A stretch of DNA of 64,000 nt from assembly GCA_028291405.1 (NCBI GenBank), contig JAQGID010000226.1:1177-65176 (forward strand), written 5' to 3'. The stretch's first letter is position 1; every line of letters begins with the position of its first letter. A program made the translations under genes and the position numbers. The notes under the pieces are model-generated. The model worked only from the letters and a program-made list of their open reading frames with translations, made no database searches and was not told where the DNA came from. Shown in pieces: positions 27,701-43,967 of the stretch. This stretch comes from Rhodospirillales bacterium (GTDB lineage: Bacteria > Pseudomonadota > Alphaproteobacteria > ATCC43930 > CGMCC-115725).

Positions 27701-27738
27701 GGCGGCATCCCAGAAAGATCGGGATGCCGCCTTTTTTT
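27701..27738 (+). terminator. rho-independent terminator after xoxF
   Basis: GGCGGCATCCC-agaaagatc-GGGATGCCGCC (11-bp stem) followed by TTTTTTT, 20 nt after the xoxF stop. Confidence 0.85.
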
Positions 27739-27796
27739 GGTCGCCGAGTGCCGCGGCGCATGCGCGGCGCTCGCGGTAGATTTTACGGAGCAAGGT

Positions 27797-28264
27797 ATGG
27801 TTATGAAGGGTCGCTGCGGTATCGGTGTTGTGGCATCCGTCGCTGTCGCTACAGGATGCGCGCTCGGGCTTTTGGCGGTCGGCGCCGCAGCCCAGGACAA
27901 GCCCGCCCAGGACAAGCCCGCCCAGGACAAGCCCTACACGGTCGTCGACGGCAAGGTCGACAAGGGCACCTACAATGGCTGGCGGCGTTACACGGAAGCC
28001 TGCCTGCGTTGCCATGGCCCGGACGGGGCGGGCAGCTCATACGCCCCCGACCTTCTGGACTCGCTCAAATCCATGAGCGAGGACCAGTTCAAGGAGGTCG
28101 TGGTCAACGGCCGGCAGAACGTCACGAGCTCGGCGACGAACGTGATGCCGCCGTTCGGCACCGTCGAGGACGTCATGCTCTACCTCGACGACATCTACGC
28201 CTATCTGAAGGCTCGGTCCGACGGTGCGCTCGACCGCGGCCGTCCCGAGCGGATCGAGCAATAG
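27797..28264 (+). CDS. periplasmic mono-haem c-type cytochrome (XoxG-candidate)
   Basis: Signal peptide, a single CLRCH haem motif and a distal NVMPPFG Met ligand region. GGAG RBS. Confidence 0.85.
   Translation: MVMKGRCGIGVVASVAVATGCALGLLAVGAAAQDKPAQDKPAQDKPYTVVDGKVDKGTYNGWRRYTEACLRCHGPDGAGSSYAPDLLDSLKSMSEDQFKEVVVNGRQNVTSSATNVMPPFGTVEDVMLYLDDIYAYLKARSDGALDRGRPERIEQ
27890..27934 (+). repeat. 3 x 15-nt in-frame tandem repeat encoding AQDKP-AQDKP-AQDKP
   Basis: gcccaggacaagccc repeated three times, directly after the predicted signal-peptide cleavage site of the cytochrome. Confidence 0.9.
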
Positions 28265-28358: not shown

Positions 28359-29852
28359 TCAGAAGAAGACGATGGTGCCGGCTGCGACCGTATCCTCGCT
28401 CGCAGCGTTGCCACCTTGCGCGCGGGAATGCGTGTGAGTGTATTCGGTAACGAGATTGATCCAATCGGTCAGTTTGTAATGGATGCCGAAGGACTCGGAT
28501 TCATTGTCTTTGACAAGGAGCGGATTGACCTCGCCGTTGGCAAGGCCTAGGTGACTCAACCCGTAGCTGCCGCCGACCGTCAGACGCTCGAAAAACGTAT
28601 AGGTCAGTTGCCCGATGTAGCCGTTCGAACTCCGCTTTTCGCCGGTTGCACTGACCGCGTCGAAGAAGAGACCGGTCGTGCCGATGCCGTCGCCGGTGTA
28701 GCCGTACAGCATCAAGGCGGCGCCGCCCAAGGTAAGCTTTGCGCCTACGTCGCCACCGAGGGCACGGTGGGAGGTCGAGGTGGCCGGTGCATCGCCGATG
28801 CCGTTGCTCTTGAAATTCTGCGTCACCATGTTGGTCCAGAATTTCGCACCGACCGGACCAAGGGTGCCGTCCGGCACTGTATACGTGACCTTTGCCTGGA
28901 TTTGCGGCTCGTCGTGCGCCGATAGAGTTCCGGAGACGCCGCTGAAGTTAAAGGCGTTGAGCGGCGTGAAGACGCCGGCCGCGCCTTGCAACCCGGCAAA
29001 TTCCGGCGAGGTGTAAGTGATTTGGGGGATCCAGTCGGTATAGATATAGCCGAGGCCTATGCGGCCAAACGTCGTGTTGGACGGCGCAATATTGCCGCCG
29101 GGGCTGCCTACGCCGAATAGCGTGAAGTCGTTGAGGATGGCTTCCTGAGCGAAGAGGCCGATATCGCGTCCGGCTTTGAAGGTTCCCATGCGCGGGGTGC
29201 CGACCGTGACGAATTGCTGGCGGAAGTCGATGCCGCTCGTGCCGAGCGCGCGGGCATTGCCGGCCGAGTTCGCGCCACCGACGCCGCTGACGCTGTTGAG
29301 GCCCGGATAGAAGCCGAAGGTGACGCCGATGTCGTATCCTTCCTGCCGTGTCTTCAGGTTTATGCTGAAATTTCCCGGTAGCAGACCGTTGCGCACCGAC
29401 GCGGAATTGTTGCCTCCGGTATTCGCGAGGCCGCCGAGGACCGTCGTCGATGGCGAGAGCCTGTCAGGCATATCGTGCACATAGAAGGCGTTGATGTTGC
29501 CGGAGAAGCTGAGATCGACCGGCCCGATGTGCATACCGATGCCCTTATCCATCATGGTGATGAACGGGGTGCTCGGCGCCAGCGCCGGATTAACGCGCGT
29601 CGCGCTCGCCGGCGCCGCTTCCTGCGCGGGCTGCTGCGCCACCGGTGGGGGCGGCGCCTGGCGCTGCTCGGTCGTCTTGCGCTGCTTAAGGGCGAGAAAC
29701 TCCTGCTGGGTCAAGATGCCCTTGGCGCGCAGCTTGTCGAGCAGGTCATCGGTCGTATCGGCGAAGGCCGGTGCGCCGAGCAGCAACACGAGGCCGCCGG
29801 CCAGCGCGGCTGTACGATAGGCAACGACGGAGTCAGGGTTATCCTGCTTCAT
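28359..29852 (-). CDS. outer-membrane porin with Pro/Gln-rich N-terminal linker
   Basis: Signal peptide (..GAPAFA), coiled/Pro-rich segment, long amphipathic beta-strand region, C-terminal ..AAGTIVFF. GGGAGGA RBS. Confidence 0.8.
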   Translation of the reverse strand: MKQDNPDSVVAYRTAALAGGLVLLLGAPAFADTTDDLLDKLRAKGILTQQEFLALKQRKTTEQRQAPPPPVAQQPAQEAAPASATRVNPALAPSTPFITMMDKGIGMHIGPVDLSFSGNINAFYVHDMPDRLSPSTTVLGGLANTGGNNSASVRNGLLPGNFSINLKTRQEGYDIGVTFGFYPGLNSVSGVGGANSAGNARALGTSGIDFRQQFVTVGTPRMGTFKAGRDIGLFAQEAILNDFTLFGVGSPGGNIAPSNTTFGRIGLGYIYTDWIPQITYTSPEFAGLQGAAGVFTPLNAFNFSGVSGTLSAHDEPQIQAKVTYTVPDGTLGPVGAKFWTNMVTQNFKSNGIGDAPATSTSHRALGGDVGAKLTLGGAALMLYGYTGDGIGTTGLFFDAVSATGEKRSSNGYIGQLTYTFFERLTVGGSYGLSHLGLANGEVNPLLVKDNESESFGIHYKLTDWINLVTEYTHTHSRAQGGNAASEDTVAAGTIVFF

Positions 29853-30153
29853 GGCAGCTTCGTCCTCCCGCTCATCCAGCCCGCGCGACGCCGCCGGGCT
29901 CGTTTTATTTCGCGCCGTTCCGCAGCCTTCGAGCTTCCTCGTCGATGTTCAGTAAAGAGAGAACACGACCGAATATGCTCATTAGGAACGGCATCAAAGC
30001 TTTTGACGCGATGAGACGGTGACTGAAATGCAACTATAGTTGTATTGTATTCGAGGCGCGAACGTTAGATGTTGTCAGTGTTGGCGCGGCAGCAACCGAA
30101 AAAATATCGGCTGTCGTAACAATTGTTCTTGGGAGGAACGGGGGGAGGCGCCA

Positions 30154-30690
30154 TTGGCCGACTGCACGCCGAGTGCCGACCTGTCGTCACCACCGCGGCA
30201 TTGCCCGCATTGCGGCAATGCTCGCACTTGTCGCTGGGGATTTTTTCACGGCTCGCAGCGCTATCGGTGCCGACAATGCGGCCGCACGTTCAATGCTTTG
30301 ACCGGAACGCGATATGCACGGCTGCGTAGCGCCGAGCTTTGGCTCGACTACCGCGCGGCGATCGTCGCGCAGCTCAGTATCAGAGGCGCGGCGGACCACT
30401 GCGGAATCAGCGTCCCGACGGCGCGTCGCTGGCGCCGCCGCATCGGTGCGGCGCCCGATCCGGAGATCGACGGGACGAGCGGGCGTACGGCAGTGCCAGA
30501 CAAGGCATCGCACAGCGACATGGGACCGGCATCGGGAATGCGGGACCGCGGCGAGATCGATTTCGTCGAATGGGCCCGTGCCGCGACCGCCATCGACGGC
30601 GGGCATGCCATGCGCGAAAGGCTCGATGTTTTATTCGGGGCGGCTTCGCCCCACGCCGACGCGGAACGGGGAAGTGACAAAAAAAAATAA
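30154..30690 (+). CDS. orphan IS1-InsA / IS1595-N-terminal-like zinc-ribbon plus HTH protein
   Basis: CPHCGNARTCRWGFFHGSQRYRCRQCGRTFNALTG (CxxC..CxxC ribbon), then LSIRGAADHCGISVPTARRWRRRI (HTH). TTG start after GGGGAG; the ORF opens at 30040. No DDE transposase ORF is adjacent. Confidence 0.55.
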   Translation: MADCTPSADLSSPPRHCPHCGNARTCRWGFFHGSQRYRCRQCGRTFNALTGTRYARLRSAELWLDYRAAIVAQLSIRGAADHCGISVPTARRWRRRIGAAPDPEIDGTSGRTAVPDKASHSDMGPASGMRDRGEIDFVEWARAATAIDGGHAMRERLDVLFGAASPHADAERGSDKKK

Positions 30691-30720
30691 AAGCGGCATT
30701 CCAGTTTCCCGGAATGCCGC
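30679..30720 (-). terminator. rho-independent terminator of pqqA
   Basis: Minus strand reads GCGGCATTCC-gggaaac-tGGAATGCCGC followed by TTTTATTTTTTTTT. The U-tract is the complement of the Lys-Lys-Lys-stop end of the convergent zinc-ribbon gene. Confidence 0.8.
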
Positions 30721-30757
30721 CGATCGGTCGTTGGGACCGTCGCGCAGGTGTGAGGTT

Positions 30758-30838
30758 TCAGGCGACTTTCGCGCATGCGTAGCTGTTGATTTCCATTCCG
30801 ACCGGCAATTCGGTGATCCGTGGCTTTGACCAACGCAT
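30758..30838 (-). CDS. pqqA: PQQ precursor peptide PqqA (26 aa)
   Basis: Read by hand because it is too short for the ORF track: MRWSKPRITELPVGMEINSYACAKVA. It has the PqqA hallmarks: W3, KP, and E16-x3-Y20 within G-M-E-I-N-S-Y. GAGGAG RBS 6 nt upstream; terminator 37 nt downstream. Confidence 0.9.
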   Translation of the reverse strand: MRWSKPRITELPVGMEINSYACAKVA

Positions 30839-31062
30839 TTTCCGCTCCTCGGTGAATCAGCCGACACCCGGTGGGCGTCAGTTTGTTAGAGTCGCGCGGA
30901 AACCAAATCTGGCCAATACGCCTTTAGTCGTAGATGGAGGAGCAGCCAGTCCCGCCTGTTGGGAAACGCTCGTGCCGCACCCACGTGAGCAATGGTTGGG
31001 ACAAATGCACTTGCCTGTCGCGCCAAACTCCGCCACGGTCGGTGTTGGAGGAAACGCGCCAA

Positions 31063-31773
31063 ATGTCGCGCATGGACAGAATTCTGATCGCGGACGACCA
31101 CCCGCTGGTGCGCGGCGCTCTCGCGCTGTCCGTCGAGGCGGCCTTCGGCAGGATCGAGATCCTGGAATGTGCCAGCTTCGGCGAGCTCATCGTGCAGCTC
31201 GAACGCACAGGGATCGCCGATCTCGCGCTTCTGGATCTGCTGATGCCGGGAGTGAACGGCTTCGACGGCCTGCTCACCGTGCGCGCCAGGTTTCCGGAGA
31301 CGCCGGTCGTCATCATCTCGGCGCTGGAGGAAAGGCGTCTGGTCGATGAGGCGATCGCCCTCGGCGCCGCCGGTTTCATCCCGAAATCGACGCCGCGTCA
31401 GGACATCGTCGCGGCGCTGCACCGCGTCGCCGCAGGCGAGATCTACATCCCCGCAGACCGTCACGCCGCCGATGCGGCGGCCAGGCGGCCTCTCGACGCG
31501 GAGGATATCGAGATCGCGCAGAAGCTGTCGACCCTTACGACGCAGCAGCTGCGGGTGCTGCGTCTGCTCGGGACGGGAAAGCTCAACAAGGAAATTGCCT
31601 ACGAGCTCGAGATTGCCGAGCCGACCGTGAAGGTCCACGTCTCCGCGATCTTGCAAAAGCTGAAAGTCTACAGCCGCACACAAGCTGTCGTGGTTGCCGG
31701 CCGGCTGCTCTCGACCGAGGTGTTGGAAGAGGCTGGCCAAGGCCGCTTCTCTCGAGAGAGGACGAGCGCCTAG
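31063..31773 (+). CDS. LuxR/FixJ (NarL-type) response regulator
   Basis: Receiver ILIADDHPLVR..LLDLLMPG..FIPKS plus C-terminal HTH LTTQQLRVLRLLGTGKLNKEIAYELEIAEPTVKVHVSAILQKL. Confidence 0.9.
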   Translation: MSRMDRILIADDHPLVRGALALSVEAAFGRIEILECASFGELIVQLERTGIADLALLDLLMPGVNGFDGLLTVRARFPETPVVIISALEERRLVDEAIALGAAGFIPKSTPRQDIVAALHRVAAGEIYIPADRHAADAAARRPLDAEDIEIAQKLSTLTTQQLRVLRLLGTGKLNKEIAYELEIAEPTVKVHVSAILQKLKVYSRTQAVVVAGRLLSTEVLEEAGQGRFSRERTSA

Positions 31774-31795
31774 AGCAGAGCGTCCGTCATCGCCA

Positions 31796-34423
31796 TCAAC
31801 GGAGCATCTGCGTCATCAGCGAGCGAAGCTGCGCCGGCTTGATCGGCTTGTTGAGCAGCCGGCAGCCATGCTCCTTGGCGATGACCTTGACCTCCGACGA
31901 GCGGTTCGCCGTGACGATGATGCAGGGTAGGGCTTTCCCGCACGCCTCCGAAATTCGCCCGATCTCGGTCACGCCGACGGCGCCGTCGTCGAGGTGGAAA
32001 TCGGCGATCACGAGATCCGGCATCGAGGGCAGCGACGGAAGGAGCGCGAGCGCCGCATCGCCCGAGGTCGCGACACAGACGCGACAATTCCACCCGCCGA
32101 GCAGCGCGGTCATGCCGGCAAGGATGCTCGGCTCGTTGTCGATGACCAGGACGAGGGCGCGCGAAAGGCGCTGCTCGGAGGCGCTTCGAGGCGCGGCGCG
32201 CGGCATGGCGACCGGGGCGTCGCCGTAGGGGATCGTCACGTGGAATACCGAGCCGTGGTCAGGCGTCGATCGAACGCCGACGGGAACCTCCAGGGTCTTG
32301 GCGATGCGCTTGACGATCGCCAAGCCCAGGCCGACGCCGCGATCCTGCTTGGCGCGCGCGTTCGGCAGCTGGCGGAACTCCTCGAAAATCTCGTCGAGCT
32401 TTTCCGCCGGAATGCCGATGCCGGTGTCCCATACCTCGATGCGTAGTCCCGCGTTGATTCGGCGGCAACCGATCAGCACGCGTCCCAGGGGCGTGTAACG
32501 CAGCGCATTGCTGAGAAAGTTCTGGATGATGCGACGCAGCAGCCGGACGTCGCAGCGCACGACGCAGCGCGACGGCACCAGGCGAAGCTCCAGTCCGCGC
32601 TTGGCAGCGAGCAGCGTGTACTCGGTCGAGAGCGGGACGAGCAGCGAGCTGATGTGGAAATCGATGATCTCCGGCGAGACGGCGCCGGCGTCGAACTTCG
32701 AGATGTCGAGAAGGGTACCGAGCAGATCCTCGACGCTGCCGAGCGATTCGTCGACGTTGTCGAGAAGCGTCCGGTTGCGCTCGTCCTGGTCCAGCTCGGC
32801 GAGGGCGGAGACGAAAAGGCGGGCGGCGTTCAGCGGCTGCAGCAGATCGTGGCTCGCGGCCGCGAGGAACTTGGTCTTGCCGAGATTGGCCATCTCCGCG
32901 TCGGTCTTTGCGACCTTGAGCGCTGCCTCGATCTCGCGCCGCTCGGCGATCTCCTGCTGCAGCTTCTCGTTCAGGATCGTCAGCGCCGCGGTACGGTCCT
33001 CGACACGCCGCTCGAGCGTCTCGTTGGCTTCCTTGAGCGCGGCGGCGAAAACGCGCCGCTCCGTGATGTCCTGCACCAGCGTGAAGAAGCCGAGAATCTC
33101 GTGGTCGTCCCCGAAATGCGGCACGGAGGTCGCGAGGCCGAACGCCGGGCGGTTCGCGCCAGTCGGCGTCAGCTCGACCTCGAAAGTGACGCTCTCGCCG
33201 GACAGCGCGCGGCCGACGTAGTCCTTGCGGCGCTCATAGAATTCCGCCGGCAGGACCTCGCTCATGCGGCGGCCGATGATGTCGCTCTCGGCCCGCCCGA
33301 TCCAGCGGCAATAGGGCTGATTGACGAACTGATAGATCTGATCGGCGTCGACGTAGGAGATGAGCGCCGGCGTCGCATCGGTGATCAGCCGGATGCGTTG
33401 CTCGCCGTCGCGCAGGGCGTTCTCGATCTGCTTGCGGCGGGTGATGTCGTCGAAGCTCAGGACGAAGCCGCCGTCCGGCATCGGATTGCGCTGGACCTCA
33501 ATGACGCGGCCGCCGAGCCAGGCGACCTCGAATTTGAGCGGCGTCGAATCGTGCGGCTCGAGCCGTTCGCAGAGTACGTCGCCCGGGGTGCCGAGGCGGC
33601 TGATATAGGCGGTGAAATCGGCGAAGCTGGCGTCGCGCCTTACGACCTGCGCCGGGAGGTCGAAGGTGCGAATGAATTCGTTGTTCCAGGCCGCCAGCTT
33701 GAAGTTGCGATCGTAGACGCCGACGCCTTCGAAGATGTTGTCGAGCGTCGCCTGCAAAAGCGTGCTCTTTTCGGACAGCTCGGCCTCGCGCTGCAGGGTC
33801 TCGCGGCGCTTGAGATCTGTGATATCGGTATAGATGCAGACGATGCCGCCGTCGGTCGTACGCTTCTCGTTGACCTGCATCCAGCGCCCATCGCTCAGCG
33901 CATGCACCGAAGGTCCTTGCGGATCGTTGTGCTGGGCAAGGCGCCGCCGTATCCAGTCGTCGGGGTCGCGGTAGGCATCGACCACCGCCTTGCGCTGCGC
34001 CGCGAGGACGACGATCTCGGTGAATGACATGCCGACGCGGATCAGATCCGAAATGCCCGGCCAGAACGTCAGGTAGCGCGGATTGAAGAGCACCAGCCGG
34101 TCGTGCGGATCGAACAGCGAGAACCCCTCGCTGACCGAGCCGATCGCCGCCATGAGCCGACGCTGCGCCGTCTCGAACTGCTCTTTCGCCGCGGCGACCT
34201 CGGCATAGGAACGTTCGAGCTCGCCAGTGCGCTCGCGAACTTTCGCCTCGAGTACGATCGCCGTCTGGAAGAGCGAGAAGGCCGAGCCCTGGGCGTCCAT
34301 GCTGCGCTCGACGCGATCCATTAGGGCAAGGTTGATCTTGCGCAGCTTCGCGATCTCGCGCTCGAGGGCGGCGATGCGGGAGTGCGACTCCTCGGCCGCG
34401 CGAAATGGGAGGATCGAGCTCAT
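31796..34423 (-). CDS. cytoplasmic multi-PAS hybrid sensor histidine kinase / response regulator
   Basis: N-terminal coiled coil and at least three PAS-like blocks. H-box FLAAASHDLLQPLN, N-box FLSNALRYT, G-boxes DTGIGIP and GVGLGLAIV. C-terminal receiver VLVIDNEP..VIADFHLDDG..NKP. No TM segments seen. Confidence 0.9.
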   Translation of the reverse strand: MSSILPFRAAEESHSRIAALEREIAKLRKINLALMDRVERSMDAQGSAFSLFQTAIVLEAKVRERTGELERSYAEVAAAKEQFETAQRRLMAAIGSVSEGFSLFDPHDRLVLFNPRYLTFWPGISDLIRVGMSFTEIVVLAAQRKAVVDAYRDPDDWIRRRLAQHNDPQGPSVHALSDGRWMQVNEKRTTDGGIVCIYTDITDLKRRETLQREAELSEKSTLLQATLDNIFEGVGVYDRNFKLAAWNNEFIRTFDLPAQVVRRDASFADFTAYISRLGTPGDVLCERLEPHDSTPLKFEVAWLGGRVIEVQRNPMPDGGFVLSFDDITRRKQIENALRDGEQRIRLITDATPALISYVDADQIYQFVNQPYCRWIGRAESDIIGRRMSEVLPAEFYERRKDYVGRALSGESVTFEVELTPTGANRPAFGLATSVPHFGDDHEILGFFTLVQDITERRVFAAALKEANETLERRVEDRTAALTILNEKLQQEIAERREIEAALKVAKTDAEMANLGKTKFLAAASHDLLQPLNAARLFVSALAELDQDERNRTLLDNVDESLGSVEDLLGTLLDISKFDAGAVSPEIIDFHISSLLVPLSTEYTLLAAKRGLELRLVPSRCVVRCDVRLLRRIIQNFLSNALRYTPLGRVLIGCRRINAGLRIEVWDTGIGIPAEKLDEIFEEFRQLPNARAKQDRGVGLGLAIVKRIAKTLEVPVGVRSTPDHGSVFHVTIPYGDAPVAMPRAAPRSASEQRLSRALVLVIDNEPSILAGMTALLGGWNCRVCVATSGDAALALLPSLPSMPDLVIADFHLDDGAVGVTEIGRISEACGKALPCIIVTANRSSEVKVIAKEHGCRLLNKPIKPAQLRSLMTQMLR

Positions 34424-35571
34424 TCGGCACCGATCGCGACGCCGGTCAGCGTCTGGTTGACATGCATCGAATTGAACTGCTCGCCGTAAGTGCAGAACCC
34501 GATCACGCCGTTCCGCACGAAGAGCTCGGAGACGATCGGCTTGAGCTGCCGCTGCTCGATTTCGAGATTACGCAGGACACAGTCGCAGCCGATGATCAAA
34601 TCCGGTTCTCCGACCTCTTCCTTGAGCCGCGCGAAAAGGTTTCGCAGATCCTGCACTACATCGACGCTCCTGGCGATGGTCAGCACGAGTCCGACATCGA
34701 TCGCGCAGAAGAAAGTGAGGCTGTTGTCGTCGTTGACCTTCTGGATCGAGCGAACGTGATAGAGGCCGCCGACACGCACCATCAGCGGATGGGCGGCGAA
34801 GATCATCGGCGTCGGCGGCGTGCCCGCCTGGCCGACCATCCGGGCGTATTCGTAGGCGGCGGGCTCGGCGTTCAGCTCTGTGACGACGCGGGCCGCGGGG
34901 TCGGCCCCGGTGACCACGACCTTTTGGTCGGTATGGACGAAGTGCTCGGTCTTGAAGACCGAGAAACGACGCGTCGTCGTGATAAGGAGCAGCGCGGCAG
35001 CGTCGGTGACGAAGGCGCCGCCGTAGAGGATCCAGGTGCAGCGGAAATTCATGTCGTCGCCGGCTGAGCCGCCGAGCAGCGGCGTGTCACCGAGCACCGT
35101 CGCGATGGCGCTGACGACCTGTTCCTCGCGCACCGACAGCCCATCGATCAGAAGAAGGGCGAAGCCGCGCGGCACGGCGCCGCCACGCGGGAAGGTTGCC
35201 GCGGCAAGCCGATCGCGCTCGGCGATGGCGGCGCGGGTCTTCTCGATCGTCGCGGCCAGCTCGAAATTGGCCAGGCCCTCGAACAATGCCGAGGCGACGA
35301 TGAAATCCTCACGCGGGAAGCCAATTCCGCAGACGCCGCCGTTGATGTAGCCGAAGGGCGCGATCTCGCCGGCGGTGGTACAGCCGAAGACGGGCGTATC
35401 GCCGAAATGATGGCGCACCGCCGCGGCAATCGTGCCGGTCTCGTATTGCGGCGAGCAGAAGATCACGGCAAAGGTAATATCGGGGCCGCCGATCAGACCG
35501 TGCAGCTCGGCGATCGCGTCATGCGGATCCACCGCCCGCGAGCCTCCGCGCAAGAGTCGGCGTTTCGGCAT
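34420..35571 (-). CDS. FIST (FIST_N + FIST_C) sensory domain protein
   Basis: FAVIFCSPQY..FGCTTAGEI..GFALLLIDGLS..LLGGSAGD..EPDLIIGCDCVLRNLE..GFCTYGEQ is the FIST pattern. Stop overlaps the kinase start (ATGA). Confidence 0.85.
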   Translation of the reverse strand: MPKRRLLRGGSRAVDPHDAIAELHGLIGGPDITFAVIFCSPQYETGTIAAAVRHHFGDTPVFGCTTAGEIAPFGYINGGVCGIGFPREDFIVASALFEGLANFELAATIEKTRAAIAERDRLAAATFPRGGAVPRGFALLLIDGLSVREEQVVSAIATVLGDTPLLGGSAGDDMNFRCTWILYGGAFVTDAAALLLITTTRRFSVFKTEHFVHTDQKVVVTGADPAARVVTELNAEPAAYEYARMVGQAGTPPTPMIFAAHPLMVRVGGLYHVRSIQKVNDDNSLTFFCAIDVGLVLTIARSVDVVQDLRNLFARLKEEVGEPDLIIGCDCVLRNLEIEQRQLKPIVSELFVRNGVIGFCTYGEQFNSMHVNQTLTGVAIGAE

Positions 35572-35869
35572 GGAAAAACAGCCCCGCTGTTCCGCGCGAC
35601 GACGACGACCGCGGGGCCTTATCGGCCTAGGATTGCTGCGATCGCCCGAACTACGTGTCGATCGTATCCCAGCTTGCGGCGGATTTGAACCGCCCGATGA
35701 TATTCGGCGGAGCCGGCGGAAAATCGCCTCGCTCCGGAATATCGCATCGGCTAGTCTGCGGCTGCCCCAGCCGATCGCTTCCGGACGTCGCGCTCGCGGC
35801 TTCGTTTGGATCGACGCCTGCCGCAAGAAGGCGCTCCTCATGCGCCCGGATGACGAGGAGGACCTACCC

Positions 35870-36235
35870 GTGACCATCCGCTTCCTCTTGCCGCTCGCTG
35901 CCGTCCTCCTGATCGCCGACGCGACCGGTCCCGGGACGGGTTCGGCCGCCGAGCGCCTGCGCTTCTGGAACCTGACGACGACAACCATCTCCGAGCTCTA
36001 TCTCGCGCCTGTCGGAACGACGGATTGGGGTGCGAACCAATGCTTGAACGATCGCGACGGCGCCGTCGATTCGGACGAGCGGCTCGCGATCACCGGCATC
36101 GATCCCGGCGTGTACGACGTCAAGTTGGTGGATAAGAAAGGCCGCCTGTGCCAGCTGAAAGGTGTCAAGGTCGAGGCCGGAAGACCCTATGCCTTCTCGA
36201 TCGCCGATGGCGATCTGACGGATTGCACGAAATGA
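35870..36235 (+). CDS. secreted hypothetical protein (121 aa, 3 Cys)
   Basis: GTG start 8 nt after GAGGAGGA. Signal-like MTIRFLLPLAAVLLIADA. The stop overlaps the start of the beta-propeller gene (ATGA). An alternative ATG lies at 35840. Confidence 0.55.
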   Translation: MTIRFLLPLAAVLLIADATGPGTGSAAERLRFWNLTTTTISELYLAPVGTTDWGANQCLNDRDGAVDSDERLAITGIDPGVYDVKLVDKKGRLCQLKGVKVEAGRPYAFSIADGDLTDCTK

Positions 36236-37233
36236 GCGAGGCCATGATCTCCACAGCACTGTGGAAGTACGGCACAGCCGCCTTTCTCGCCGGTGCCGGC
36301 ATCCTCCTGACCGTCGCTCCCTGTCTTTCCGAGACCATCCTCGTCTCGAACGAAAAGGGCAATACGATCACCGTCCTCGATGCCGACAGCCTGACGACGC
36401 TTCGCACGATTCCGGTTGGACAGCGGCCGCGCGGCATCGTCCTGTCGAAGGACCGCAATACGCTCTTCATCTGCGCCAGCGACGACGACGACATCAACGT
36501 GCTCGACCTGACCGACTACACGCTGAAGGAGCCTTTGCCGAGCGGGCCGGATCCGGAGACCTTCGCGCTTCATCCTGACGGTCAGCATCTCTACGTCTCG
36601 AACGAGGACGACAGCCTCGTCTCCATCGTCGACATCAAGCAGCGCCGCGTCATCGGCGAGATTCCGGTCGGCGTCGAGCCAGAGGGAATCGGCATAAGCC
36701 CGGATGGGCGGTGGATCGTGAATACCTCCGAGACGACCAGCATGGCGCATTTCATCGACAACGAGAGCCATCAGGTCGTCAGCAACGTCCTCGTCGATGC
36801 GAGGCCGCGCCATGCGGAATGGACCGCCGACGGCGCGCAGGTCTGGGTCTCGGCCGAGGTCGGCGGCACGGTAACGGTGATCGACGCGGCGAAGCGCAGC
36901 GCCGTCCAGAAAATCAAATTCGCCGTGCCCGGCGTTCCCGACGAGGCGATCCAGCCGGTCGGGATCCTGCTGACCGCGGACCGGAAGCTTGCCTTCGTCG
37001 CCCTCGGCCCCGCCAATCGTGTCGCCGTGATCGACGCCCAGACCTATGAGGTGAAGCGCTATCTTCTGGTCGGGCAACGCGTCTGGAATCTCGCCTTCAA
37101 CCACGACCAGAGCCGCATCTACACGACCAATGGGGTCAGCAGCGACATCTCGGTTATCGATGTCGCAGCGCAGCGGGTCCTCAAATCGGTGCCGGTCGGC
37201 GAGCAGCCATGGGGCATCGTCGTCAGACCATAG
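36232..37233 (+). CDS. YVTN-repeat beta-propeller protein (PQQ-dependent catabolism-associated type)
   Basis: Signal/anchor, then repeated ..PRGI..S.DG..L(Y/F)V(S/T)N... blades (VGQRPRGIVLSKD, GPDPETFALHPDG, GVEPEGIGISPDG, ARPRHAEWTADG, GEQPWGIVV). Confidence 0.85.
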   Translation: MSEAMISTALWKYGTAAFLAGAGILLTVAPCLSETILVSNEKGNTITVLDADSLTTLRTIPVGQRPRGIVLSKDRNTLFICASDDDDINVLDLTDYTLKEPLPSGPDPETFALHPDGQHLYVSNEDDSLVSIVDIKQRRVIGEIPVGVEPEGIGISPDGRWIVNTSETTSMAHFIDNESHQVVSNVLVDARPRHAEWTADGAQVWVSAEVGGTVTVIDAAKRSAVQKIKFAVPGVPDEAIQPVGILLTADRKLAFVALGPANRVAVIDAQTYEVKRYLLVGQRVWNLAFNHDQSRIYTTNGVSSDISVIDVAAQRVLKSVPVGEQPWGIVVRP

Positions 37234-37353
37234 TCGTACGGCTTCATCATGCGCTCGCGTTGCGCGGCCGGGGCCGAGGGAATATGGTTTGTGTAAAGCT
37301 GCGCAATCGCTCGCGGATCGAGACCGCTGGCGGCGCAACCAGGGAGAGAAACG

Positions 37354-37770
37354 ATGGCCAGCGTCGATATGTCGATCGGTCTCAATGCACCGGCCGAGAA
37401 GGTCTGGGCGCTGATCGGCGGCTTCGCCGATCTGCCGCGGTGGCATCCGGCGTTTGCGAAGAGCGAGGTGCGCGAGGGCGGCAAACTGAAGCGCCGTCTC
37501 ACCCTCCAGGACGGCGCGTCGATCCTCGAGCAGCTCGACCATCATGACGATGCGACGAGGACGTACAGCTATACGATCGTAACGAGCCCGCTGCCGATCG
37601 CCGACTACCGCTCGGAGCTGAGCGTCCGCGACGATGGCCCGGGCCGCTGCACGGTGCGCTGGAAAAGTACGTTCGAGCCGGAAGGCGCGCCGCGGGTGGA
37701 TGCCGAGGCGGCGATCCGCGGCGTGTACCAGGGCGGTTTCGATCGGCTGGCGCAGATCTTCGCTGGCTGA
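37354..37770 (+). CDS. SRPBCC (polyketide-cyclase/START-like) family protein
   Basis: 138 aa; APAEKVWALIGGFADLPRWHP..YSYTIV..W.STFEP is the typical SRPBCC layout. Confidence 0.85.
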   Translation: MASVDMSIGLNAPAEKVWALIGGFADLPRWHPAFAKSEVREGGKLKRRLTLQDGASILEQLDHHDDATRTYSYTIVTSPLPIADYRSELSVRDDGPGRCTVRWKSTFEPEGAPRVDAEAAIRGVYQGGFDRLAQIFAG

Positions 37771-37968
37771 ACCGCTAGTTCTTTCGATCTATAGACGCTC
37801 GATCAACGCGATCGATACTGTTTCGATTCCGCCGCAACGAACAGAATAGGACGAGGTCGTGGAGGGAGGCTGGGAGCGTCACGCGCGCAGGGGGCTCGGT
37901 AGTTGCATCCGGTGCTCGCCTCCAGCTTCGATGACTTGCTGTGAGCGGTGCACGAACGACAGGTAGAC

Positions 37969-38892
37969 ATGCGCGCTGTTGTCTTAGGCTCGGCGGCGGG
38001 TGGCGGGTTTCCGCAGTGGAATTCGAATGCGCCGGCATGCCGGCGGGCGCGACGCGGCGATACCGTTGCGGTGGCTCGCACCCAGGCGTCGCTTGCGATT
38101 TCGGCGGATGCGCGTTCCTGGTTCCTCCTGAATGCCTCACCCGATCTGCGTGAGCAGATCGCGCACTCGGAGTTCCTGTGGCCGAGCGAGGGGCTGCGCT
38201 CGTCGCCGATCGCCGGCGTCGTGCTGACCGGCGCCGATGTCGACGCCGTTGCCGGCCTGCTCTCGATGCGCGAGCGCCAGCCCTTTGCGCTCTATGCCAC
38301 GGCGGAGGTGCAGGCGGCACTCGCCGGCAACCCGATCTTCGAAGTCCTGACGGCCGATTGCGTCGAGCGCCGCGTTTTGCCGCTCGATCGTCCGGTGCCG
38401 CTCGCTGGCAGCGGCGGAATCGATTCCGGCCTCGACGTGCTCGCCTTTGCGGTACCTGGCAAAGTACCGTTGTGGTGCGAGGGCGGCCGTGACCCCGGCG
38501 TCCAGGAGACCGGCCACTCCGTTGGGCTGGCGCTCGCCGAGCGCGGCCGGCCGGCCCATGTCTTTTTCGTACCCGGCTGCGCGGCAATGACTCCGGCTCT
38601 GGCGCAGCGCCTGCGCAGCGCGGCGGCGGTCTTCTTCGATGGGACGCTGTGGCGCGACGACGAGATGATCCGTCTCGGGGTCGGCGACAAGACCGGCCGC
38701 CGGATGGGCCATATGAGCATGTCGGGCGACGATGGCGCGATTGCCGCGCTTCGCGATCTCGCGATCTCGCGCAAGATCTTCGTCCACATCAACAACACCA
38801 ATCCCGTCCTGCTCGAAGGCTCGCCGGAGCGCGTCGCCGCCGAAGCCGCGGGTTGGACCGTCGCCCATGACGGCTTGGAGTTGACGCTATGA
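37969..38892 (+). CDS. pqqB: PQQ biosynthesis protein PqqB
   Basis: MRAVVLGSAAGGGFPQWNSN..LLNASPD..VLTGADVDAVAGLL..HINNTNP is the MBL-like PqqB signature. Confidence 0.95.
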   Translation: MRAVVLGSAAGGGFPQWNSNAPACRRARRGDTVAVARTQASLAISADARSWFLLNASPDLREQIAHSEFLWPSEGLRSSPIAGVVLTGADVDAVAGLLSMRERQPFALYATAEVQAALAGNPIFEVLTADCVERRVLPLDRPVPLAGSGGIDSGLDVLAFAVPGKVPLWCEGGRDPGVQETGHSVGLALAERGRPAHVFFVPGCAAMTPALAQRLRSAAAVFFDGTLWRDDEMIRLGVGDKTGRRMGHMSMSGDDGAIAALRDLAISRKIFVHINNTNPVLLEGSPERVAAEAAGWTVAHDGLELTL

Positions 38893-39629
38893 ACGGCTTG
38901 ATGACTGCGCGGGAGCTGGAGGCGGCGCTTCGCGAGCTCGGCGCGCAGCGCTACCACAATCTGCACCCCTTCCACCGCTTGCTGCACGGCGGCAAGCTCG
39001 ATCGCGGCCAGGTGCAGGCCTGGGCGCTCAACCGCTACTGCTATCAAAGCGCCATCCCGCGCAAAGACGCGAGCCTGATCGCGCGGACCGATGATCCCGA
39101 CCTCCGCCGCCTCTGGCGCCAGCGCCTCATCGACCATGACGGCGAGGCGGAAGGCGAGGGCGGGATTGCGCGCTGGCTCGCGTTGACGAATGGTCTCGGC
39201 CTCGATCGCGACTACGTCATCTCGAAGCGGGGCGCGCTGGCGGCGACGCGGTTTGCGGTCGAGGCCTACGTCCATTTCGTCCGTGAGCAGAGCCTGCTCG
39301 AGGCGGTGGCGTCTTCGCTCACCGAGCTGTTTTCCACGACCATCATCAGCGAGCGGGTCTCCGGCATGCTGGCCGGCTACTCCTTCATCGACCGAGAGAC
39401 GTTGGCCTATTTCAACGCACGGCTGACTCAGGCGCCGCGCGACGCCGATTTCGCGCTCGAATACGTGAAGCGCGAGGCCCGCTCACCGGAGCAGCAACAA
39501 GCTGTGCTCGGTGCGCTCGCCTTCAAATGCGACGTGCTCTGGGCGCAGCTCGATGCGCTCTATCACGCCTACGTCGAGCCCGGACACATACCGCCCGGCG
39601 CCTTCCGACCCGGCGAGACGGTGCGGTGA
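38889..39629 (+). CDS. pqqC: pyrroloquinoline-quinone synthase PqqC
   Basis: YHNLHPFHRLLHGGKL..VQAWALNRYCYQ..IPRKDA..ALAATRFAVEAYV..SSLTELF. Start overlaps the pqqB stop (ATGA). Confidence 0.97.
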   Translation: MNGLMTARELEAALRELGAQRYHNLHPFHRLLHGGKLDRGQVQAWALNRYCYQSAIPRKDASLIARTDDPDLRRLWRQRLIDHDGEAEGEGGIARWLALTNGLGLDRDYVISKRGALAATRFAVEAYVHFVREQSLLEAVASSLTELFSTTIISERVSGMLAGYSFIDRETLAYFNARLTQAPRDADFALEYVKREARSPEQQQAVLGALAFKCDVLWAQLDALYHAYVEPGHIPPGAFRPGETVR

Positions 39630-39934
39630 ACGAGGGCCGGACACCGCCGCGGCGCATCGACGCCGACGCCATTCCGCGGCTGAAGCCGCATGTTCGGCTG
39701 CAGTTCAGCGAGGCGCGCAGCGCGTGGATCGTCCAGGCGCCGGAGCGTGTGCTGATGCCGGACGACATCGCCCTTGCCGTGCTGCAGCGCTGCGATGGCG
39801 TCGCGAGCGTCGCGGCGATCGTCACCGCCCTGGCGTCCGCCTACGACGCGCCGCCAAGCGAGGTCGAGGGCGACGTCGTCGAGTTGCTGCAGGATCTTGC
39901 CGAGAAGGGGATCATCGCCGATGCCCGAGATTGA
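39626..39934 (+). CDS. pqqD: PQQ biosynthesis peptide chaperone PqqD
   Basis: PRLKPHVRLQFSEARSAWIVQAPERVLMPDDIALAVLQRCDG..DVVELLQDLAEKGII. GTG start overlaps the pqqC stop (GTGA). Confidence 0.9.
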   Translation: MNEGRTPPRRIDADAIPRLKPHVRLQFSEARSAWIVQAPERVLMPDDIALAVLQRCDGVASVAAIVTALASAYDAPPSEVEGDVVELLQDLAEKGIIADARD

Positions 39935-41048
39935 GGCGCCGCTCGCCATCCTGGCCGAGCTGACCCATCGCTGCCCGCTGCAGTGTCCCTATTGCTCCAA
40001 TCCGCTCGAGCTCGAGCGCGCGCGGCAGGAGCTCGAAACCGACGAGTGGCTGCGGATCCTCGACGAGGCGGCAGCCCTCGGCGTGCTGCAGGTCCATTTC
40101 TCCGGCGGCGAGCCCATGGCGCGGCGCGACCTCGAGGCGCTCGTCGCGCATGCCGCGGCGGTCGGTCTCTACACCAACCTGATCACCTCCGGCGTCATGC
40201 TCGACGATCGCCGCGCCGCGGCTTTGGCCGCCGCCGGTCTCGATCACGTCCAGATCAGCTTCCAGGACGTCGACGATGCCGAGGGCGATCGGATCGCAGG
40301 CTACAAAGACGCCCAGCGCCAGAAGCGGGAGGCGGCGCGCCGCGTCCGTGGCGCCGGTCTGCCGCTCACTGTCAACGCGGTGGTGCATCGCCAGAACCTT
40401 GCGCGTCTCGCGGAGATGATCGAGCTCGCCGTCGAGCTCGATGCCGCCCGCATCGAGGTGGCGCACGTGCAATATTACGGCTGGGCGCTGCGGAACCGCG
40501 CCGCGCTCTTGCCGAGCCGCGCGCAGCTCGACGCGGCGACGGCGATCGTCGAGGAGGCGCGCGAGCGGCTGCGCGGTCGTCTCGTCATCGACTACGTCGT
40601 CCCGGATTACCATGCCGCGCTGCCCAAGGCCTGCATGGGCGGATGGGGAAGGCGCTTCCTCAACGTGACGCCCTCCGGCCACGTCCTGCCATGCCACGCC
40701 GCCGAGACCTTGCCCGGCTTCGACTTCCCCTCGGTGCGCGAGGCGAGTCTGGCAGCAATCTGGCGGAGCTCCGATGCCTTCAACCGCTTTCGCGGCACGA
40801 GCTGGATGCAGGAGCCCTGCCGCAATTGCGAGCGTCGCGAGATCGACTGGGGTGGTTGTCGCTGCCAGGCCTTCGCCTTGACCGGCGACATCAATGCGAC
40901 CGATCCGGTGTGCGGCAAGGTCGCAGACCGGACGATCCTCGAAGCGGCCGTGCGGGAGAGCGCGGCGCCGCCGCCGCCTTTGATCTACCGCCGGATCGGC
41001 GGCGAGCAGCCGGTACGGCCGGCGACCGTCGTTCCGACCGCAGGTTAG
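39921..41048 (+). CDS. pqqE: PqqA peptide cyclase PqqE (radical SAM/SPASM)
   Basis: LAELTHRCPLQCPYCSN radical-SAM CxxxCxxC motif; GGEP; C-terminal SPASM cysteines (CMGGWG.., PCH.., CRNCERREIDWGGCRCQA). Confidence 0.97.
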   Translation: MPEIEAPLAILAELTHRCPLQCPYCSNPLELERARQELETDEWLRILDEAAALGVLQVHFSGGEPMARRDLEALVAHAAAVGLYTNLITSGVMLDDRRAAALAAAGLDHVQISFQDVDDAEGDRIAGYKDAQRQKREAARRVRGAGLPLTVNAVVHRQNLARLAEMIELAVELDAARIEVAHVQYYGWALRNRAALLPSRAQLDAATAIVEEARERLRGRLVIDYVVPDYHAALPKACMGGWGRRFLNVTPSGHVLPCHAAETLPGFDFPSVREASLAAIWRSSDAFNRFRGTSWMQEPCRNCERREIDWGGCRCQAFALTGDINATDPVCGKVADRTILEAAVRESAAPPPPLIYRRIGGEQPVRPATVVPTAG

Positions 41049-41054
41049 CCGCCG

Positions 41055-41978
41055 ATGCGCTGGCGCGACGCTTCGATTGGCGCAGTGCTCTGCCTCGGAG
41101 TGCCGCCGCTCGCGATGGCCGCGACGCCGCTGACGACGACGCAGATTGCGCCCGGCATCTACCTTCATGCCGGCGTCCAGGCGGAGGCGACCGCCGCCAA
41201 CGAAGATGCGATCGCCAATGTCGGCTTCATCGTTGGTGACGCATCGGTTTTGGTCGTCGACCCCGGCGGCAGCGCGCGCGAAGGCGAGGATCTGCGGGCC
41301 GCGATCCGGCAGGTGACCGATCGGCCGATCCGCTATGTCGTGATGACGCATGTGCATCCCGACCACATCTTCGGCGCTGCCGCCTTCAAGGAAGACGGGC
41401 CGGAGTTCATCGGCCACGCCAAGCTTCCCGGCTCCCTGGCGCAACGCGGCGCATTCTATCTGCGAAACCTCCGTCGGGAATTGGGCGAGGCGGCGGATGG
41501 GAGCGAGGTGATAGTGCCGACGCACCTCGTTGCGACGACGGAAGCCTTCGACCTCGGGGAGCGGATCGTCACCATTCGGGCGCATGGGCCGGCGCATACC
41601 GATACCGATCTCTCATTGTTGGACGAACGGACGCGGACCCTCTTCCTCGGCGATCTGCTCTTTGTCGAGCGCATCCCGGTGATCGACGGCAGCGTCGTCG
41701 GCTGGCTGCATGAGCTGGATTCCCTGGCGGATTTTACGGCGGCGCGGGCGGTGCCGGGTCATGGCCCGGTCGCGGTCGACTGGCCGGCGGCGTTGGTGCC
41801 GGAGCGGCGCTATTTGCAGAAGGTGGTCGACGGAACGCGGCTGGCGATCCGCCAGGGCATTGACATCGGCGAAGCACCGCGCCACGTCGCGATAGACGAG
41901 CAGCGAGACTGGCTGCTCTTCGAGGCGTATCATGCGCGAAACGTCACCGCCGCGTTCAAGGAGCTCGAGTGGGAATGA
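41055..41978 (+). CDS. periplasmic MBL-fold zinc hydrolase (quinoprotein relay system metallohydrolase-like)
   Basis: Signal peptide; MTHVHPDH (HxHxDH); AHGPAHTDTD; VPGHG. Starts 6 nt after the pqqE stop. Confidence 0.85.
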   Translation: MRWRDASIGAVLCLGVPPLAMAATPLTTTQIAPGIYLHAGVQAEATAANEDAIANVGFIVGDASVLVVDPGGSAREGEDLRAAIRQVTDRPIRYVVMTHVHPDHIFGAAAFKEDGPEFIGHAKLPGSLAQRGAFYLRNLRRELGEAADGSEVIVPTHLVATTEAFDLGERIVTIRAHGPAHTDTDLSLLDERTRTLFLGDLLFVERIPVIDGSVVGWLHELDSLADFTAARAVPGHGPVAVDWPAALVPERRYLQKVVDGTRLAIRQGIDIGEAPRHVAIDEQRDWLLFEAYHARNVTAAFKELEWE

Positions 41979-42018
41979 TCGTCGGACGCCGTAGGTCCGA
42001 ATCGGCGAGGAGGTCGAG

Positions 42019-42840
42019 ATGCGCAGGATGGCGATGATCTTAGCCCTGTCCGTCGTTGCGGCGGCGAGCTGGCCGGTGTCCGGACACGCGGAGGTCGACG
42101 AGGCGACGCGGCAGGCGCGCTGGACGGAGCTGCGCGATCAGATCTTCGGCGACCGGGTCGTCGAGGACGGCGCCGAGCTCCTCGCCATCGACGCCGCGAC
42201 GCGGGCCGAGGATGCCGCGATCGTCCCGATCAAGATCAGGCTCGGCGACGGGCTCAGCCGGCGGGTGAGCGCCGTCTACCTCGTCATCGATGACAATCCT
42301 TCGCCGTTGGCGGGACATTTCACCTTCGGCCCTGCCGCCGATCCCCGCGAGATCGCGACGCGCGTCCGCATCGACGACTACACCTACCTTCACGCAGTCG
42401 TCGAGACGAGGGACGGCAAGCTCTACGGCATCGCTCGGTTCATCAAGGCAGCCGGCGGCTGCTCGGCGCCGGCCGGCAAGGACCAGGCCTTGGCGATTCA
42501 GCGACTGGGCCAGATGAAGATGAGCTTCACCGGCGAGCCGCGGCTCGGCGAGCCCTATCAGGCGCACCTCCTGATCAGCCATCCGAACAGCTCCGGTATG
42601 CAGATGGACCAGCTGACGCGCGACTACATCCCGGCCGATTTCGTCCGGACCGTCAAGATCACCTACAACGGCGCGCCGGTGCTGACGCTTGAGTCCGACA
42701 TCTCGATCAGCGAGGATCCGAGTCTGACTTTCGCCTTCGTGCCGACCGCGCCGTCTGGCGAGGTCAGCGTCGAGGCCGAGGACAGCGACAACCGCCACTT
42801 CGTGCATAGCTGGCCGGTGAAGGCCGAGCCGGGCTCGTGA
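42019..42840 (+). CDS. SoxY-SoxZ fusion-like periplasmic carrier (quinoprotein dehydrogenase-associated)
   Basis: Signal peptide; N half with ..IVPIKI.. and KAAGGCS (a SoxY-type GGC cysteine at the domain junction); C half with SHPNSSGMQMDQLT..ISISEDPSLTF, which is SoxZ-like. GAGGAGG RBS. Confidence 0.8.
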   Translation: MRRMAMILALSVVAAASWPVSGHAEVDEATRQARWTELRDQIFGDRVVEDGAELLAIDAATRAEDAAIVPIKIRLGDGLSRRVSAVYLVIDDNPSPLAGHFTFGPAADPREIATRVRIDDYTYLHAVVETRDGKLYGIARFIKAAGGCSAPAGKDQALAIQRLGQMKMSFTGEPRLGEPYQAHLLISHPNSSGMQMDQLTRDYIPADFVRTVKITYNGAPVLTLESDISISEDPSLTFAFVPTAPSGEVSVEAEDSDNRHFVHSWPVKAEPGS

Positions 42841-42858: not shown

Positions 42859-43233
42859 TCATTGAAAACATTGGAGATTCGCTTCGGCCTGCGCCTGGCG
42901 AAGCCGCTCCAGGATGGCCTTGATCCACGGCGGGTCCTGGAAGAGCCCGACGCGGCCGCCGACGCCTGCGCCGGCCTGCAGGCTGAGCGCGGTGTCGGCC
43001 TTTTCGTAATCCGAGTAGGGAAGCATCCCGGCGATCGTGTCGAGAGCGCAGGAGCATTGCATCAGCGCCTCGCGGGTATTGCCGTTCGCGGCCATGCAGC
43101 CGAGCACGTAATCGGCGCGGGCGGAGGTCGGGTAGTCGTTGCTCGCCGCGACGCCGGCGGGCGCTTGCGCGCTCGCCTCCATCGTCAGGCCGAGAAGCGG
43201 CAGCGTCACCGCGGCGATGCGGAGGATCCTCAT
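42859..43233 (-). CDS. secreted hypothetical protein (124 aa, 4 Cys)
   Basis: MRILRIAAVTLPLLGLTMEASAQA signal. DYVLGCMAANG..LMQCSCALD..LQCFQ. Start overlaps the upstream gene stop by 4 nt. Confidence 0.55.
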   Translation of the reverse strand: MRILRIAAVTLPLLGLTMEASAQAPAGVAASNDYPTSARADYVLGCMAANGNTREALMQCSCALDTIAGMLPYSDYEKADTALSLQAGAGVGGRVGLFQDPPWIKAILERLRQAQAEANLQCFQ

Positions 43234-43967
43234 GGCGTCGCGGGGCCCGTGCACGGGCCCTCGGTGGTCGTACACGGCAGCTCGCCGGCAAAGACCATGC
43301 TGTCCCGCGCTAGCGGCGCTCCGCCCGCCGTGCCGGGAAGCTGTGCCGTGATCTCGTAGATCTGGCCCGGTACCGCCTTTGACAGGACGAACCGGTATTG
43401 CTTGTCCTTCAGCGCCGGGAAGGCCGTCGCGACCTGGGAATCGCCGGCGAAGGGCGCAAGGGTGATCTCGGTGGCCGACAACGACTTGCCGTCGCGTTCG
43501 ACCTCGATCGTCTTGACTGCGGCCTGATCGACGAAGGCGCGCCGGATCGTATTGCGGAAGAAGGTCGCGGCGGCGCCCGTGGCGCGGCGCATCTCGTCGA
43601 CGTCGTGCTCGAGGAAGAACATCAGGATCGGATTGCCGTGGAAATCCATCAGCGGCGGATAGGCGACGTGGTGCGGCCCGCTGAGGAAATCGACCCAGAC
43701 ATCCTTGCCGCCGTCCTCGCGGGGATGCAGGTCGAGCGCGATGCGATCGTCGAAGTCGCCGTCGTCCTTGCCGCCCTGGGTCTGATGGTGAAAGCGATAT
43801 TCAAGCTGCGCCGCTTGGTGGATGTCGCGCAAATGGTCGCTCTCGAACAGGGCGATCTGCGCCGGGCTCAGCGGCCGCGTGTCTTCGTCGGCGGCTCGGG
43901 CCGGTCCAGCCCCGAGTGCGGGCAGGGAGAGGCTGACCATGATCAAAAAAGCGGCTTTGACTGTCAT
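43230..43967 (-). CDS. secreted hypothetical protein (245 aa)
   Basis: MTVKAAFLIMVSLSLPALGAGPARA signal. GGAGGAG RBS. C-terminal ..ELPCTTTEGPCTGPATP. No family recognised. Confidence 0.6.
   Translation of the reverse strand: MTVKAAFLIMVSLSLPALGAGPARAADEDTRPLSPAQIALFESDHLRDIHQAAQLEYRFHHQTQGGKDDGDFDDRIALDLHPREDGGKDVWVDFLSGPHHVAYPPLMDFHGNPILMFFLEHDVDEMRRATGAAATFFRNTIRRAFVDQAAVKTIEVERDGKSLSATEITLAPFAGDSQVATAFPALKDKQYRFVLSKAVPGQIYEITAQLPGTAGGAPLARDSMVFAGELPCTTTEGPCTGPATP

Follow-up and report, generated by a model that had tools for sequence, protein, structure and literature searches.

A hydrolase and a fused SoxY-SoxZ-like carrier behind pqqBCDE in a Stellaceae-like methylotroph, best read as an accessory module of a XoxF-type dehydrogenase

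The window considered here is a 64,000-nucleotide stretch from a Rhodospirillales bacterium (GenBank assembly GCA_028291405.1, contig JAQGID010000226.1, positions 1,177 to 65,176), in which the genes pqqB, pqqC, pqqD and pqqE for the biosynthesis of pyrroloquinoline quinone (PQQ) are directly followed by two further genes, one for a hydrolase of the metallo-beta-lactamase (MBL) fold and one for a carrier protein with fused SoxY-like and SoxZ-like domains. In our opinion, the pair is to be understood most plausibly as a module accessory to a XoxF-type dehydrogenase and not as part of PQQ synthesis. The pair normally accompanies the XoxF-type lanthanide methanol dehydrogenase; its fusion to pqqE is real, is restricted to one clade and is no proof of PQQ handling by the pair. 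The stable core consists of the hydrolase, the carrier and a small protein named d138 here, often with a second one, d303. Both d138 and d303 belong to unannotated families, and d138 is the most regular neighbour of the pair.

The window is a methylotrophy island in a high-GC alphaproteobacterial draft genome of 461 contigs (96.75% complete). The closest relatives of this genome are metagenome-assembled genomes (MAGs) of Stellaceae, and the host is a Stellaceae-like methylotroph. The genes on which the argument turns are the following:

37969-38892, + strand: pqqB (TIGR02108, 386.8 bits, cut-off 245; the start ATG 37969 suits this match better than GTG 37948)
38889-39629, + strand: pqqC (TIGR02111, 374.1 bits, cut-off 240)
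39626-39934, + strand: pqqD, GTG start (TIGR03859, 78.4 bits, cut-off 46)
39921-41048, + strand: pqqE, radical SAM/SPASM enzyme with Pfam Radical_SAM and SPASM domains (TIGR02109, 579.4 bits, cut-off 381)
41055-41978, + strand: MBL-fold hydrolase, "quinoprotein relay system zinc metallohydrolase 2", SoxH-like (TIGR04559)
42019-42840, + strand: fused SoxY-SoxZ-like carrier (TIGR04557)
42859-43233, - strand: d138, 124 amino acids, predicted secreted, four invariant cysteines
43230-43967, - strand: d303, 245 amino acids, predicted secreted, modelled as a LolA/LprG-like open barrel

Genomic company of the pair and its fusion to pqqE

Neighbouring genes were counted within 6 kb of the carrier in 53 nearest related loci, each with at least 6 kb of sequence on both sides, and also in 17 loci from an evenly drawn class-level sample. 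In the nearest set the hydrolase was present in 51/53 loci, d138 in 46/53, xoxF in 29/53, pqqE in 22/53 and d303 in 15/53. The evenly sampled loci contained the carrier in 14 of 17 cases, d138 in nine, xoxF in eight, d303 in five and pqqE in three, so that xoxF was commoner than pqqE near the pair in both sets. The class sample comprised 401 genomes of Alphaproteobacteria. TIGR04559 was above its cut-off in 24 of them, and 22 of these 24 also carried pqqC, which lay within 20 kb of the hydrolase gene in 9 of the 22 and directly adjoined it only in the window genome and in one genome of the same family. Altogether pqqC was found in 72 of the 401 genomes, and 41 of these 72 had no related hydrolase even at E<=1e-40. 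The lack of the hydrolase in over half of the sampled PQQ producers argues against a general role of this enzyme in PQQ synthesis.

The initial annotation had proposed a role in PQQ handling, because the pair appeared to be co-transcribed with cofactor genes rather than with a dehydrogenase. This proposal is countered by the presence of an XoxF5-type dehydrogenase gene in the same island, 12 kb upstream of the pair, by the greater frequency of xoxF near the pair, by the restriction of pqqE-adjacent cases to a single clade and by the many pqqC genomes without the hydrolase.

In its full form, such a role would mean that PQQ, or an adduct of it, is bound to the carrier cysteine, that d303 serves as a barrel for the ligand, and that during delivery to apo-dehydrogenases the cofactor is repaired or set free by the hydrolase. 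The pqqE fusion is retained among carriers with identities as low as about 50%, with overlapping junctions or gaps of a few nucleotides, and this speaks in favour of such a role, as do PQQ production in 22 of the 24 TIGR04559 genomes, the proximity of pqq genes (within 20 kb) in 9 of 22, and the ligand-carrier-like fold of the d303 model. Thiol addition to PQQ, however, is a reversible reaction and would require no hydrolase. Besides the 41 PQQ producers without the hydrolase, Pseudomonas aeruginosa has PQQ enzymes and lacks the pair (PMC12997753), and beyond a single clade no fusion of the pair to pqqE occurs, xoxF being the more frequent neighbour. Handling of PQQ by the pair is considered improbable.

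A tree of the concatenated hydrolase and carrier sequences, containing 80 rows, placed all 32 pqqE-adjacent rows in one clade of 54 rows (SH-aLRT 97), composed of Stellaceae, Aliidongia and Acetobacteraceae MAGs. The same clade includes 18 rows without pqq genes upstream, and the fusion was found in 0/26 rows outside it. Most simply, this pattern can be read as a fusion that originated once and was long retained, with loosening and loss at a later stage. In other Alphaproteobacteria (loci L096-L100) the same island occurs in a different gene order, namely pqqBCDE, xoxG-xoxF on the opposite strand, hydrolase-carrier, d138-d303 on the opposite strand and folB-mfnE-dmrA. Judging by this order, the fusion looks as though the xoxFG segment, once located between pqqE and the hydrolase gene, had been removed.

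The tight packing of the six genes, which had been described earlier, was borne out by reading the sequence. The overlaps are ATGA between pqqB and pqqC, GTGA between pqqC and pqqD, and 14 nt between pqqD and pqqE; the hydrolase gene starts 6 nt after the TAG of pqqE, and the carrier gene follows after 40 nt with the ribosome-binding site GAGGAGG at 42007-42013. The 6 nt between pqqE and the hydrolase gene leave no room for a terminator. A terminator or promoter separating pqqE from the hydrolase gene had been named by the initial annotation as the counter-evidence to look for; no terminator-like or promoter-like site was found at either junction by a simple consensus scan, which is crude for a high-GC alphaproteobacterium. 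Beyond the carrier gene no terminator was recognised either, and the 100 nt at the convergent stops fold no better than shuffled sequences (z -0.48).

Junctions in related loci are comparable. The gap between pqqE and the hydrolase gene is 4-10 nt in the window's own subclade (L010-L014, L038, L055), while the two genes overlap by 4-19 nt in Aliidongia- and Acetobacteraceae-type MAGs (L060-L062, L067, L069, L074, L083, L101); in a sister subclade the gap has widened to 200-800 nt. Owing to the short gaps here, the lack of a terminator-like site and the equally tight junctions in many relatives, it is likely that pqqBCDE, the hydrolase and the carrier are expressed from a single transcript, as had been suggested.

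Alternatively, the adjacency may involve no shared transcript. The pair would then be transcribed from a promoter of its own within the pqqE 3' end, and the fusion would be no more than a compaction of the island, of no regulatory meaning. The wide gap in the sister subclade, many members of which have lost the upstream pqq genes, agrees with this explanation, and so does the strong ribosome-binding site of the carrier itself; an internal promoter within pqqE is conceivable. Against it are the 6-nt gap in the window, the overlapping stop and start codons in the Aliidongia- and Acetobacteraceae-type relatives, and the absence of a sigma-70-like site from pqqE in the same scan, weak as that is for this organism. 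We regard separate transcription as distinctly unlikely.

Hydrolase, carrier and their convergent partners

The family labels of the quinoprotein relay system, given to the two proteins by the initial annotation, were confirmed by model searches, in which both exceeded the cut-offs. The hydrolase scored 384.7 bits with TIGR04559 (cut-off 280) and 195.3 bits with the sister model TIGR04558, whose cut-off is 300, and its MBL fold was recognised by a match to Pfam Lactamase_B. The HxHxDH motif noticed earlier is indeed present as HVHPDH (H99, H101, D103 and H104). Together with H181, D200 and H236 these residues form a di-metal ligand set conserved to at least 95% among 88 homologues. The N-terminus is a hydrophobic signal sequence ending AMA/AT. 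An unnamed MBL protein, 8d2z, and chlorothalonil dehalogenase, 6uxu, are the closest relatives with solved structures; literature searches found no paper on the role of 8d2z and nothing on the biochemistry of SoxH. Identification as a class B beta-lactamase was rejected (44 bits or less, with cut-offs of at least 100).

The carrier scored 254.2 bits with TIGR04557 (cut-off 140), with positions 1-225 of the 226-position profile covered. Pfam domains SoxY and SoxZ correspond to residues 40-148 and 174-264. The SoxY-type GGC cysteine within KAAGGCS, previously placed at the junction of the two halves, was found at the end of the first of these domains. It is Cys148, the sole arm cysteine, which terminates the SoxY-like domain ahead of the SoxZ-like one. 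Among 19 homologues Cys148 is invariant, and the motif FIKAAGGCSAPA that contains it is invariant or nearly so. It aligns with the carrier cysteine of the solved SoxY structures 4uwq_B and 2ox5_Y.

A true sulfur-oxidation SoxYZ was rejected both on scores (TIGR04488, 60 bits with a cut-off of 125; TIGR04490, 53.7 bits with a cut-off of 76) and on the position of the cysteine, which occurs in an internal GGCS and not in a C-terminal GGCGG arm. No sox genes adjoin the carrier gene. A separate SoxY/SoxZ-like pair with scores below the fused-carrier cut-off is encoded on another contig of the same genome (C53).

The carrier also has a hydrophobic, signal-like N-terminus. The twin arginine of its leader is not conserved among homologues, which makes Sec export the likelier route. 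Based on the signal-like N-termini, the carrier and the hydrolase are both inferred to be periplasmic.

The stop codon of d138 is located 18 nt from that of the carrier gene, so that the two genes converge. The overlap between d303 and d138 is ATGA, with translational coupling, and each of the two proteins has a signal-like N-terminus. Neither d138 nor d303 gave a sequence match in Pfam, NCBIfam or the PDB, even at E values of up to 5-10. Homologues of d303 in the databases all bear the name "hypothetical protein" and lack Pfam domains. In d138 four residues, C46, C60, C62 and C122, do not vary among 23 sequences; its AlphaFold2 model is a helical bundle (pLDDT 79.9), for which a fold search gave no PDB match with E < 1. 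The model of d303 is an open beta-barrel with helices (pLDDT 88.9), matched by Foldseek to LprG, LolA and MucB with E values of 1.7e-4 to 2e-3 and a probability of about 1. Since the TM-scores were only 0.28-0.35, the predicted fold may be called LolA-like with reserve. The two families are found along with the carrier pair in Alpha-, Beta- and Gammaproteobacteria.

A proposed adduct cycle and its cargo

The following scheme is offered as an analogy to sulfur-oxidation systems. The genes pqqBCDE, the hydrolase gene and the carrier gene would be read as one transcript, and the pair, together with the convergent d303-d138, would constitute a periplasmic accessory module of the XoxF-type methanol dehydrogenase. 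By homology with SoxYZ/SoxB, the exposed Cys148 would, in the vicinity of the dehydrogenase, bind a small group covalently as an S-adduct, after which the di-metal MBL hydrolase would cleave the adduct and regenerate the thiol, as SoxB does for SoxY. Fusion to pqqE would have arisen once in a Rhodospirillales-type clade, by a rearrangement inside the methylotrophy island, and its effect would be co-expression of the module with cofactor supply. Such an adduct cycle accessory to XoxF, co-expressed with PQQ synthesis in this clade, seems to us evenly balanced between right and wrong.

Several observations weigh against the scheme. Cys148 is positioned in an internal loop, and the carrier fails the model of true SoxY, as described above. 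In the subclade of L043, L045, L047, L048, L050 and L052 the hydrolase gene is divergent from the carrier gene, which means that the two need not share a transcript; the conceivable promoter inside pqqE is a further objection to a common transcript. TIGR03075 recognises four dehydrogenases of this genome above its cut-off and a fifth more weakly, yet there is a single carrier and hydrolase pair, so that XoxF as the client is assumed from proximity. Random-barcode transposon sequencing in Pseudomonas putida, carried out without lanthanides, revealed little phenotype (PMC12997753). Finally, the assignment of a cargo is purely inferential.

As for this cargo, the ranking would be a sulfur species first, then an aldehyde-thioester relay, then PQQ. 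A sulfur species, persulfide or S-sulfonate, appears to be the most likely, as a tentative choice that we place well short of an even chance. It is favoured because SoxY, SoxZ, a SoxH-like hydrolase and a rhodanese-like CXXCW protein, also encoded in the island, all belong to the sulfur-transfer toolkit; thiol chemistry would also suit d138, which is rich in cysteines.

In the aldehyde relay, formaldehyde or another aldehyde set free by the dehydrogenase would be trapped by Cys148 as a hemithioacetal, the quinoprotein would oxidise it to a thioester, and the glyoxalase-II-like MBL enzyme would free the acid, so that glutathione-dependent formaldehyde oxidation would have a protein-bound counterpart in the periplasm. 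The ligand set H-x-H-x-D-H, H, D, H is typical of glyoxalase II-type thioesterases, but it is also found in many other MBL enzymes, including sulfatases and dehalogenases, and the nearest solved relatives are 8d2z and 6uxu, not glyoxalase II. The location of the pair in an island for handling formaldehyde (fae, mch, mtdB and fhcC) suits the relay, as does the association of the pair with alcohol dehydrogenases of both methanol and ethanol type (PMC12997753, PMC11237559). The rhodanese-like CXXCW protein and the four-cysteine d138 would, however, be left without a role. This relay is unlikely.

A more extensive version of the cofactor idea is that the carrier, the hydrolase, d138 and d303 form a periplasmic apparatus by which PQQ is taken up, shielded or repaired and XoxF is loaded with it. 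If this were true, the pqqE fusion, which arose once and was long kept, would reflect a direct role with the cofactor. We consider such machinery highly improbable and prefer the accessory adduct cycle.

The methylotrophy island, known systems and significance

The remaining genes of interest in the window are as follows:

25822-27681, + strand: XoxF5-type lanthanide/PQQ methanol dehydrogenase (TIGR03075, 780.5 bits)
27737-28264, + strand: XoxG-like cytochrome c (TIGR03874, E 2e-41; 141.1 bits, below the curated cut-off of 161.75)
30758-30838, - strand: pqqA, 26 codons (TIGR02107, 40.3 bits, cut-off 20)
36148-37233, + strand: PedA2-like beta-propeller (TIGR03866, 498.9 bits, cut-off 287)
62639-63478, + strand: XoxJ/PedG-like quinoprotein-associated periplasmic binding protein (TIGR03871, 305.1 bits, cut-off 212)
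63482-64000, + strand, truncated by the window edge: CXXCW rhodanese-like protein, PQQ-associated, PP_2666-like (TIGR03865, 209 bits, cut-off 128)

The best PDB match of the dehydrogenase is XoxF1 of M. extorquens (6oc5, E 6e-298). Further PQQ dehydrogenases recognised by TIGR03075 are encoded on contigs C204, C245, C59 and C81, three above the cut-off and one below. The gene fae belongs to the same 40 kb of the island as the XoxF5-type and XoxG-like genes. Genes of the tetrahydromethanopterin/methanofuran pathway are situated downstream of the carrier pair, and mch, mtdB and fhcC are part of the island. The XoxJ/PedG-like and CXXCW genes come after fhcC, 20 kb from the pair. All the catalogued "PQQ-dependent catabolism-associated" families that were found share one island with the dehydrogenase, in scattered positions.

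The open reading frame of pqqA reads MRWSKPRITELPVGMEINSYACAKVA (...EINSY...). It lies on the opposite strand, 7 kb from pqqBCDE, and adjoins a LuxR regulator gene; no pqqA-like open reading frame was found ahead of pqqB in 37771-37968. The region 28359-35988 contains a porin-like gene and genes for a LuxR-type regulator, a hybrid histidine kinase and NosP. Its content is that of PP_2662-PP_2665 at the start of P. putida's ped cluster (PMC12997753), and this may be a regulatory unit common to methylotrophy islands and ped clusters.

Directly upstream of pqqB, the propeller gene is followed by a gene for a leaderless SRPBCC (START-like) protein (36148-37770 for both). Distant homologues of these two, with 23-37% identity, adjoin the carrier module in the gammaproteobacterial loci L080, L082, L085, L086 and L089, which hints that the propeller and the SRPBCC protein may be a further conserved partner pair of the module. 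In one MAG (L082:7202-12251) two hydrolase and carrier pairs occur in tandem with a propeller and an SRPBCC gene between them; the identity of the second pair to the window proteins amounts to only 33%.

The "quinoprotein relay" set, composed of TIGR04557 and TIGR04558/TIGR04559, is represented by PP_2677/PP_2678 in the P. putida KT2440 ped cluster and by META1p1703-1705 in M. extorquens AM1. As in this set, both window proteins exceed the cut-offs and look secreted, the hydrolase gene is adjacent to the carrier gene and precedes it, and the island includes genes for a XoxF-type dehydrogenase, a cytochrome c, XoxJ-like and CXXCW proteins and a beta-propeller. Unlike it, the window pair is placed at the 3' end of pqqBCDE and not beside a dehydrogenase gene. 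The order in P. putida differs from that in the window, with the carrier before the hydrolase, between pedG and pedH (PMC12997753).

Canonical SoxYZ/SoxB (2ox5, 2oxg, 4uwq) resemble the window system in having SoxY- and SoxZ-like domains and a cysteine at a homologous position after GG, and the proposed logic of a covalent carrier with a di-metal hydrolase would be similar. The differences are that the window carrier combines both domains in one chain, has its cysteine in an internal GGCS and scores below the true-SoxY and true-SoxZ cut-offs, whereas the hydrolase has a SoxH-like MBL fold and is not SoxB, with no sox genes adjacent. In comparison with the pqqABCDE operons of methylotrophs, the canonical order and translational coupling of pqqB, C, D and E are the same, but pqqA of the window is separated from them by 7 kb and encoded on the opposite strand, and two non-biosynthetic periplasmic genes come after pqqE.

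It was stated in a 2026 review that the chemistry of both relay families is still undefined and that no member has been assayed (PMC12997753), and other papers agree (PMC11237559, PMC11582611). This corresponds to the remark of the initial annotation that the two families are defined only bioinformatically. A literature search for experimental work on PP_2677/PP_2678 found only that review. The pair has been linked to lanthanide/PQQ dehydrogenases of XoxF/PedH type (PMC12997753, PMC11237559), and the SoxYZ-S2/S4 clades were treated in PMC11237559. The pair is already catalogued and biochemically uncharacterised; what is particular here is the clade-restricted fusion to pqqE and the clear core of three to four genes.

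Lanthanide-dependent methanol and alcohol dehydrogenases are widespread, and several of their conserved accessory proteins are without an assigned job, a problem which this locus does not solve. Since d138 is the most faithful partner of the pair, often with the LolA-like d303, three or four genes, and not two, should be treated as the unit of study. As the tail of a PQQ operon in one clade, the pair would be predicted to be co-regulated with cofactor supply.

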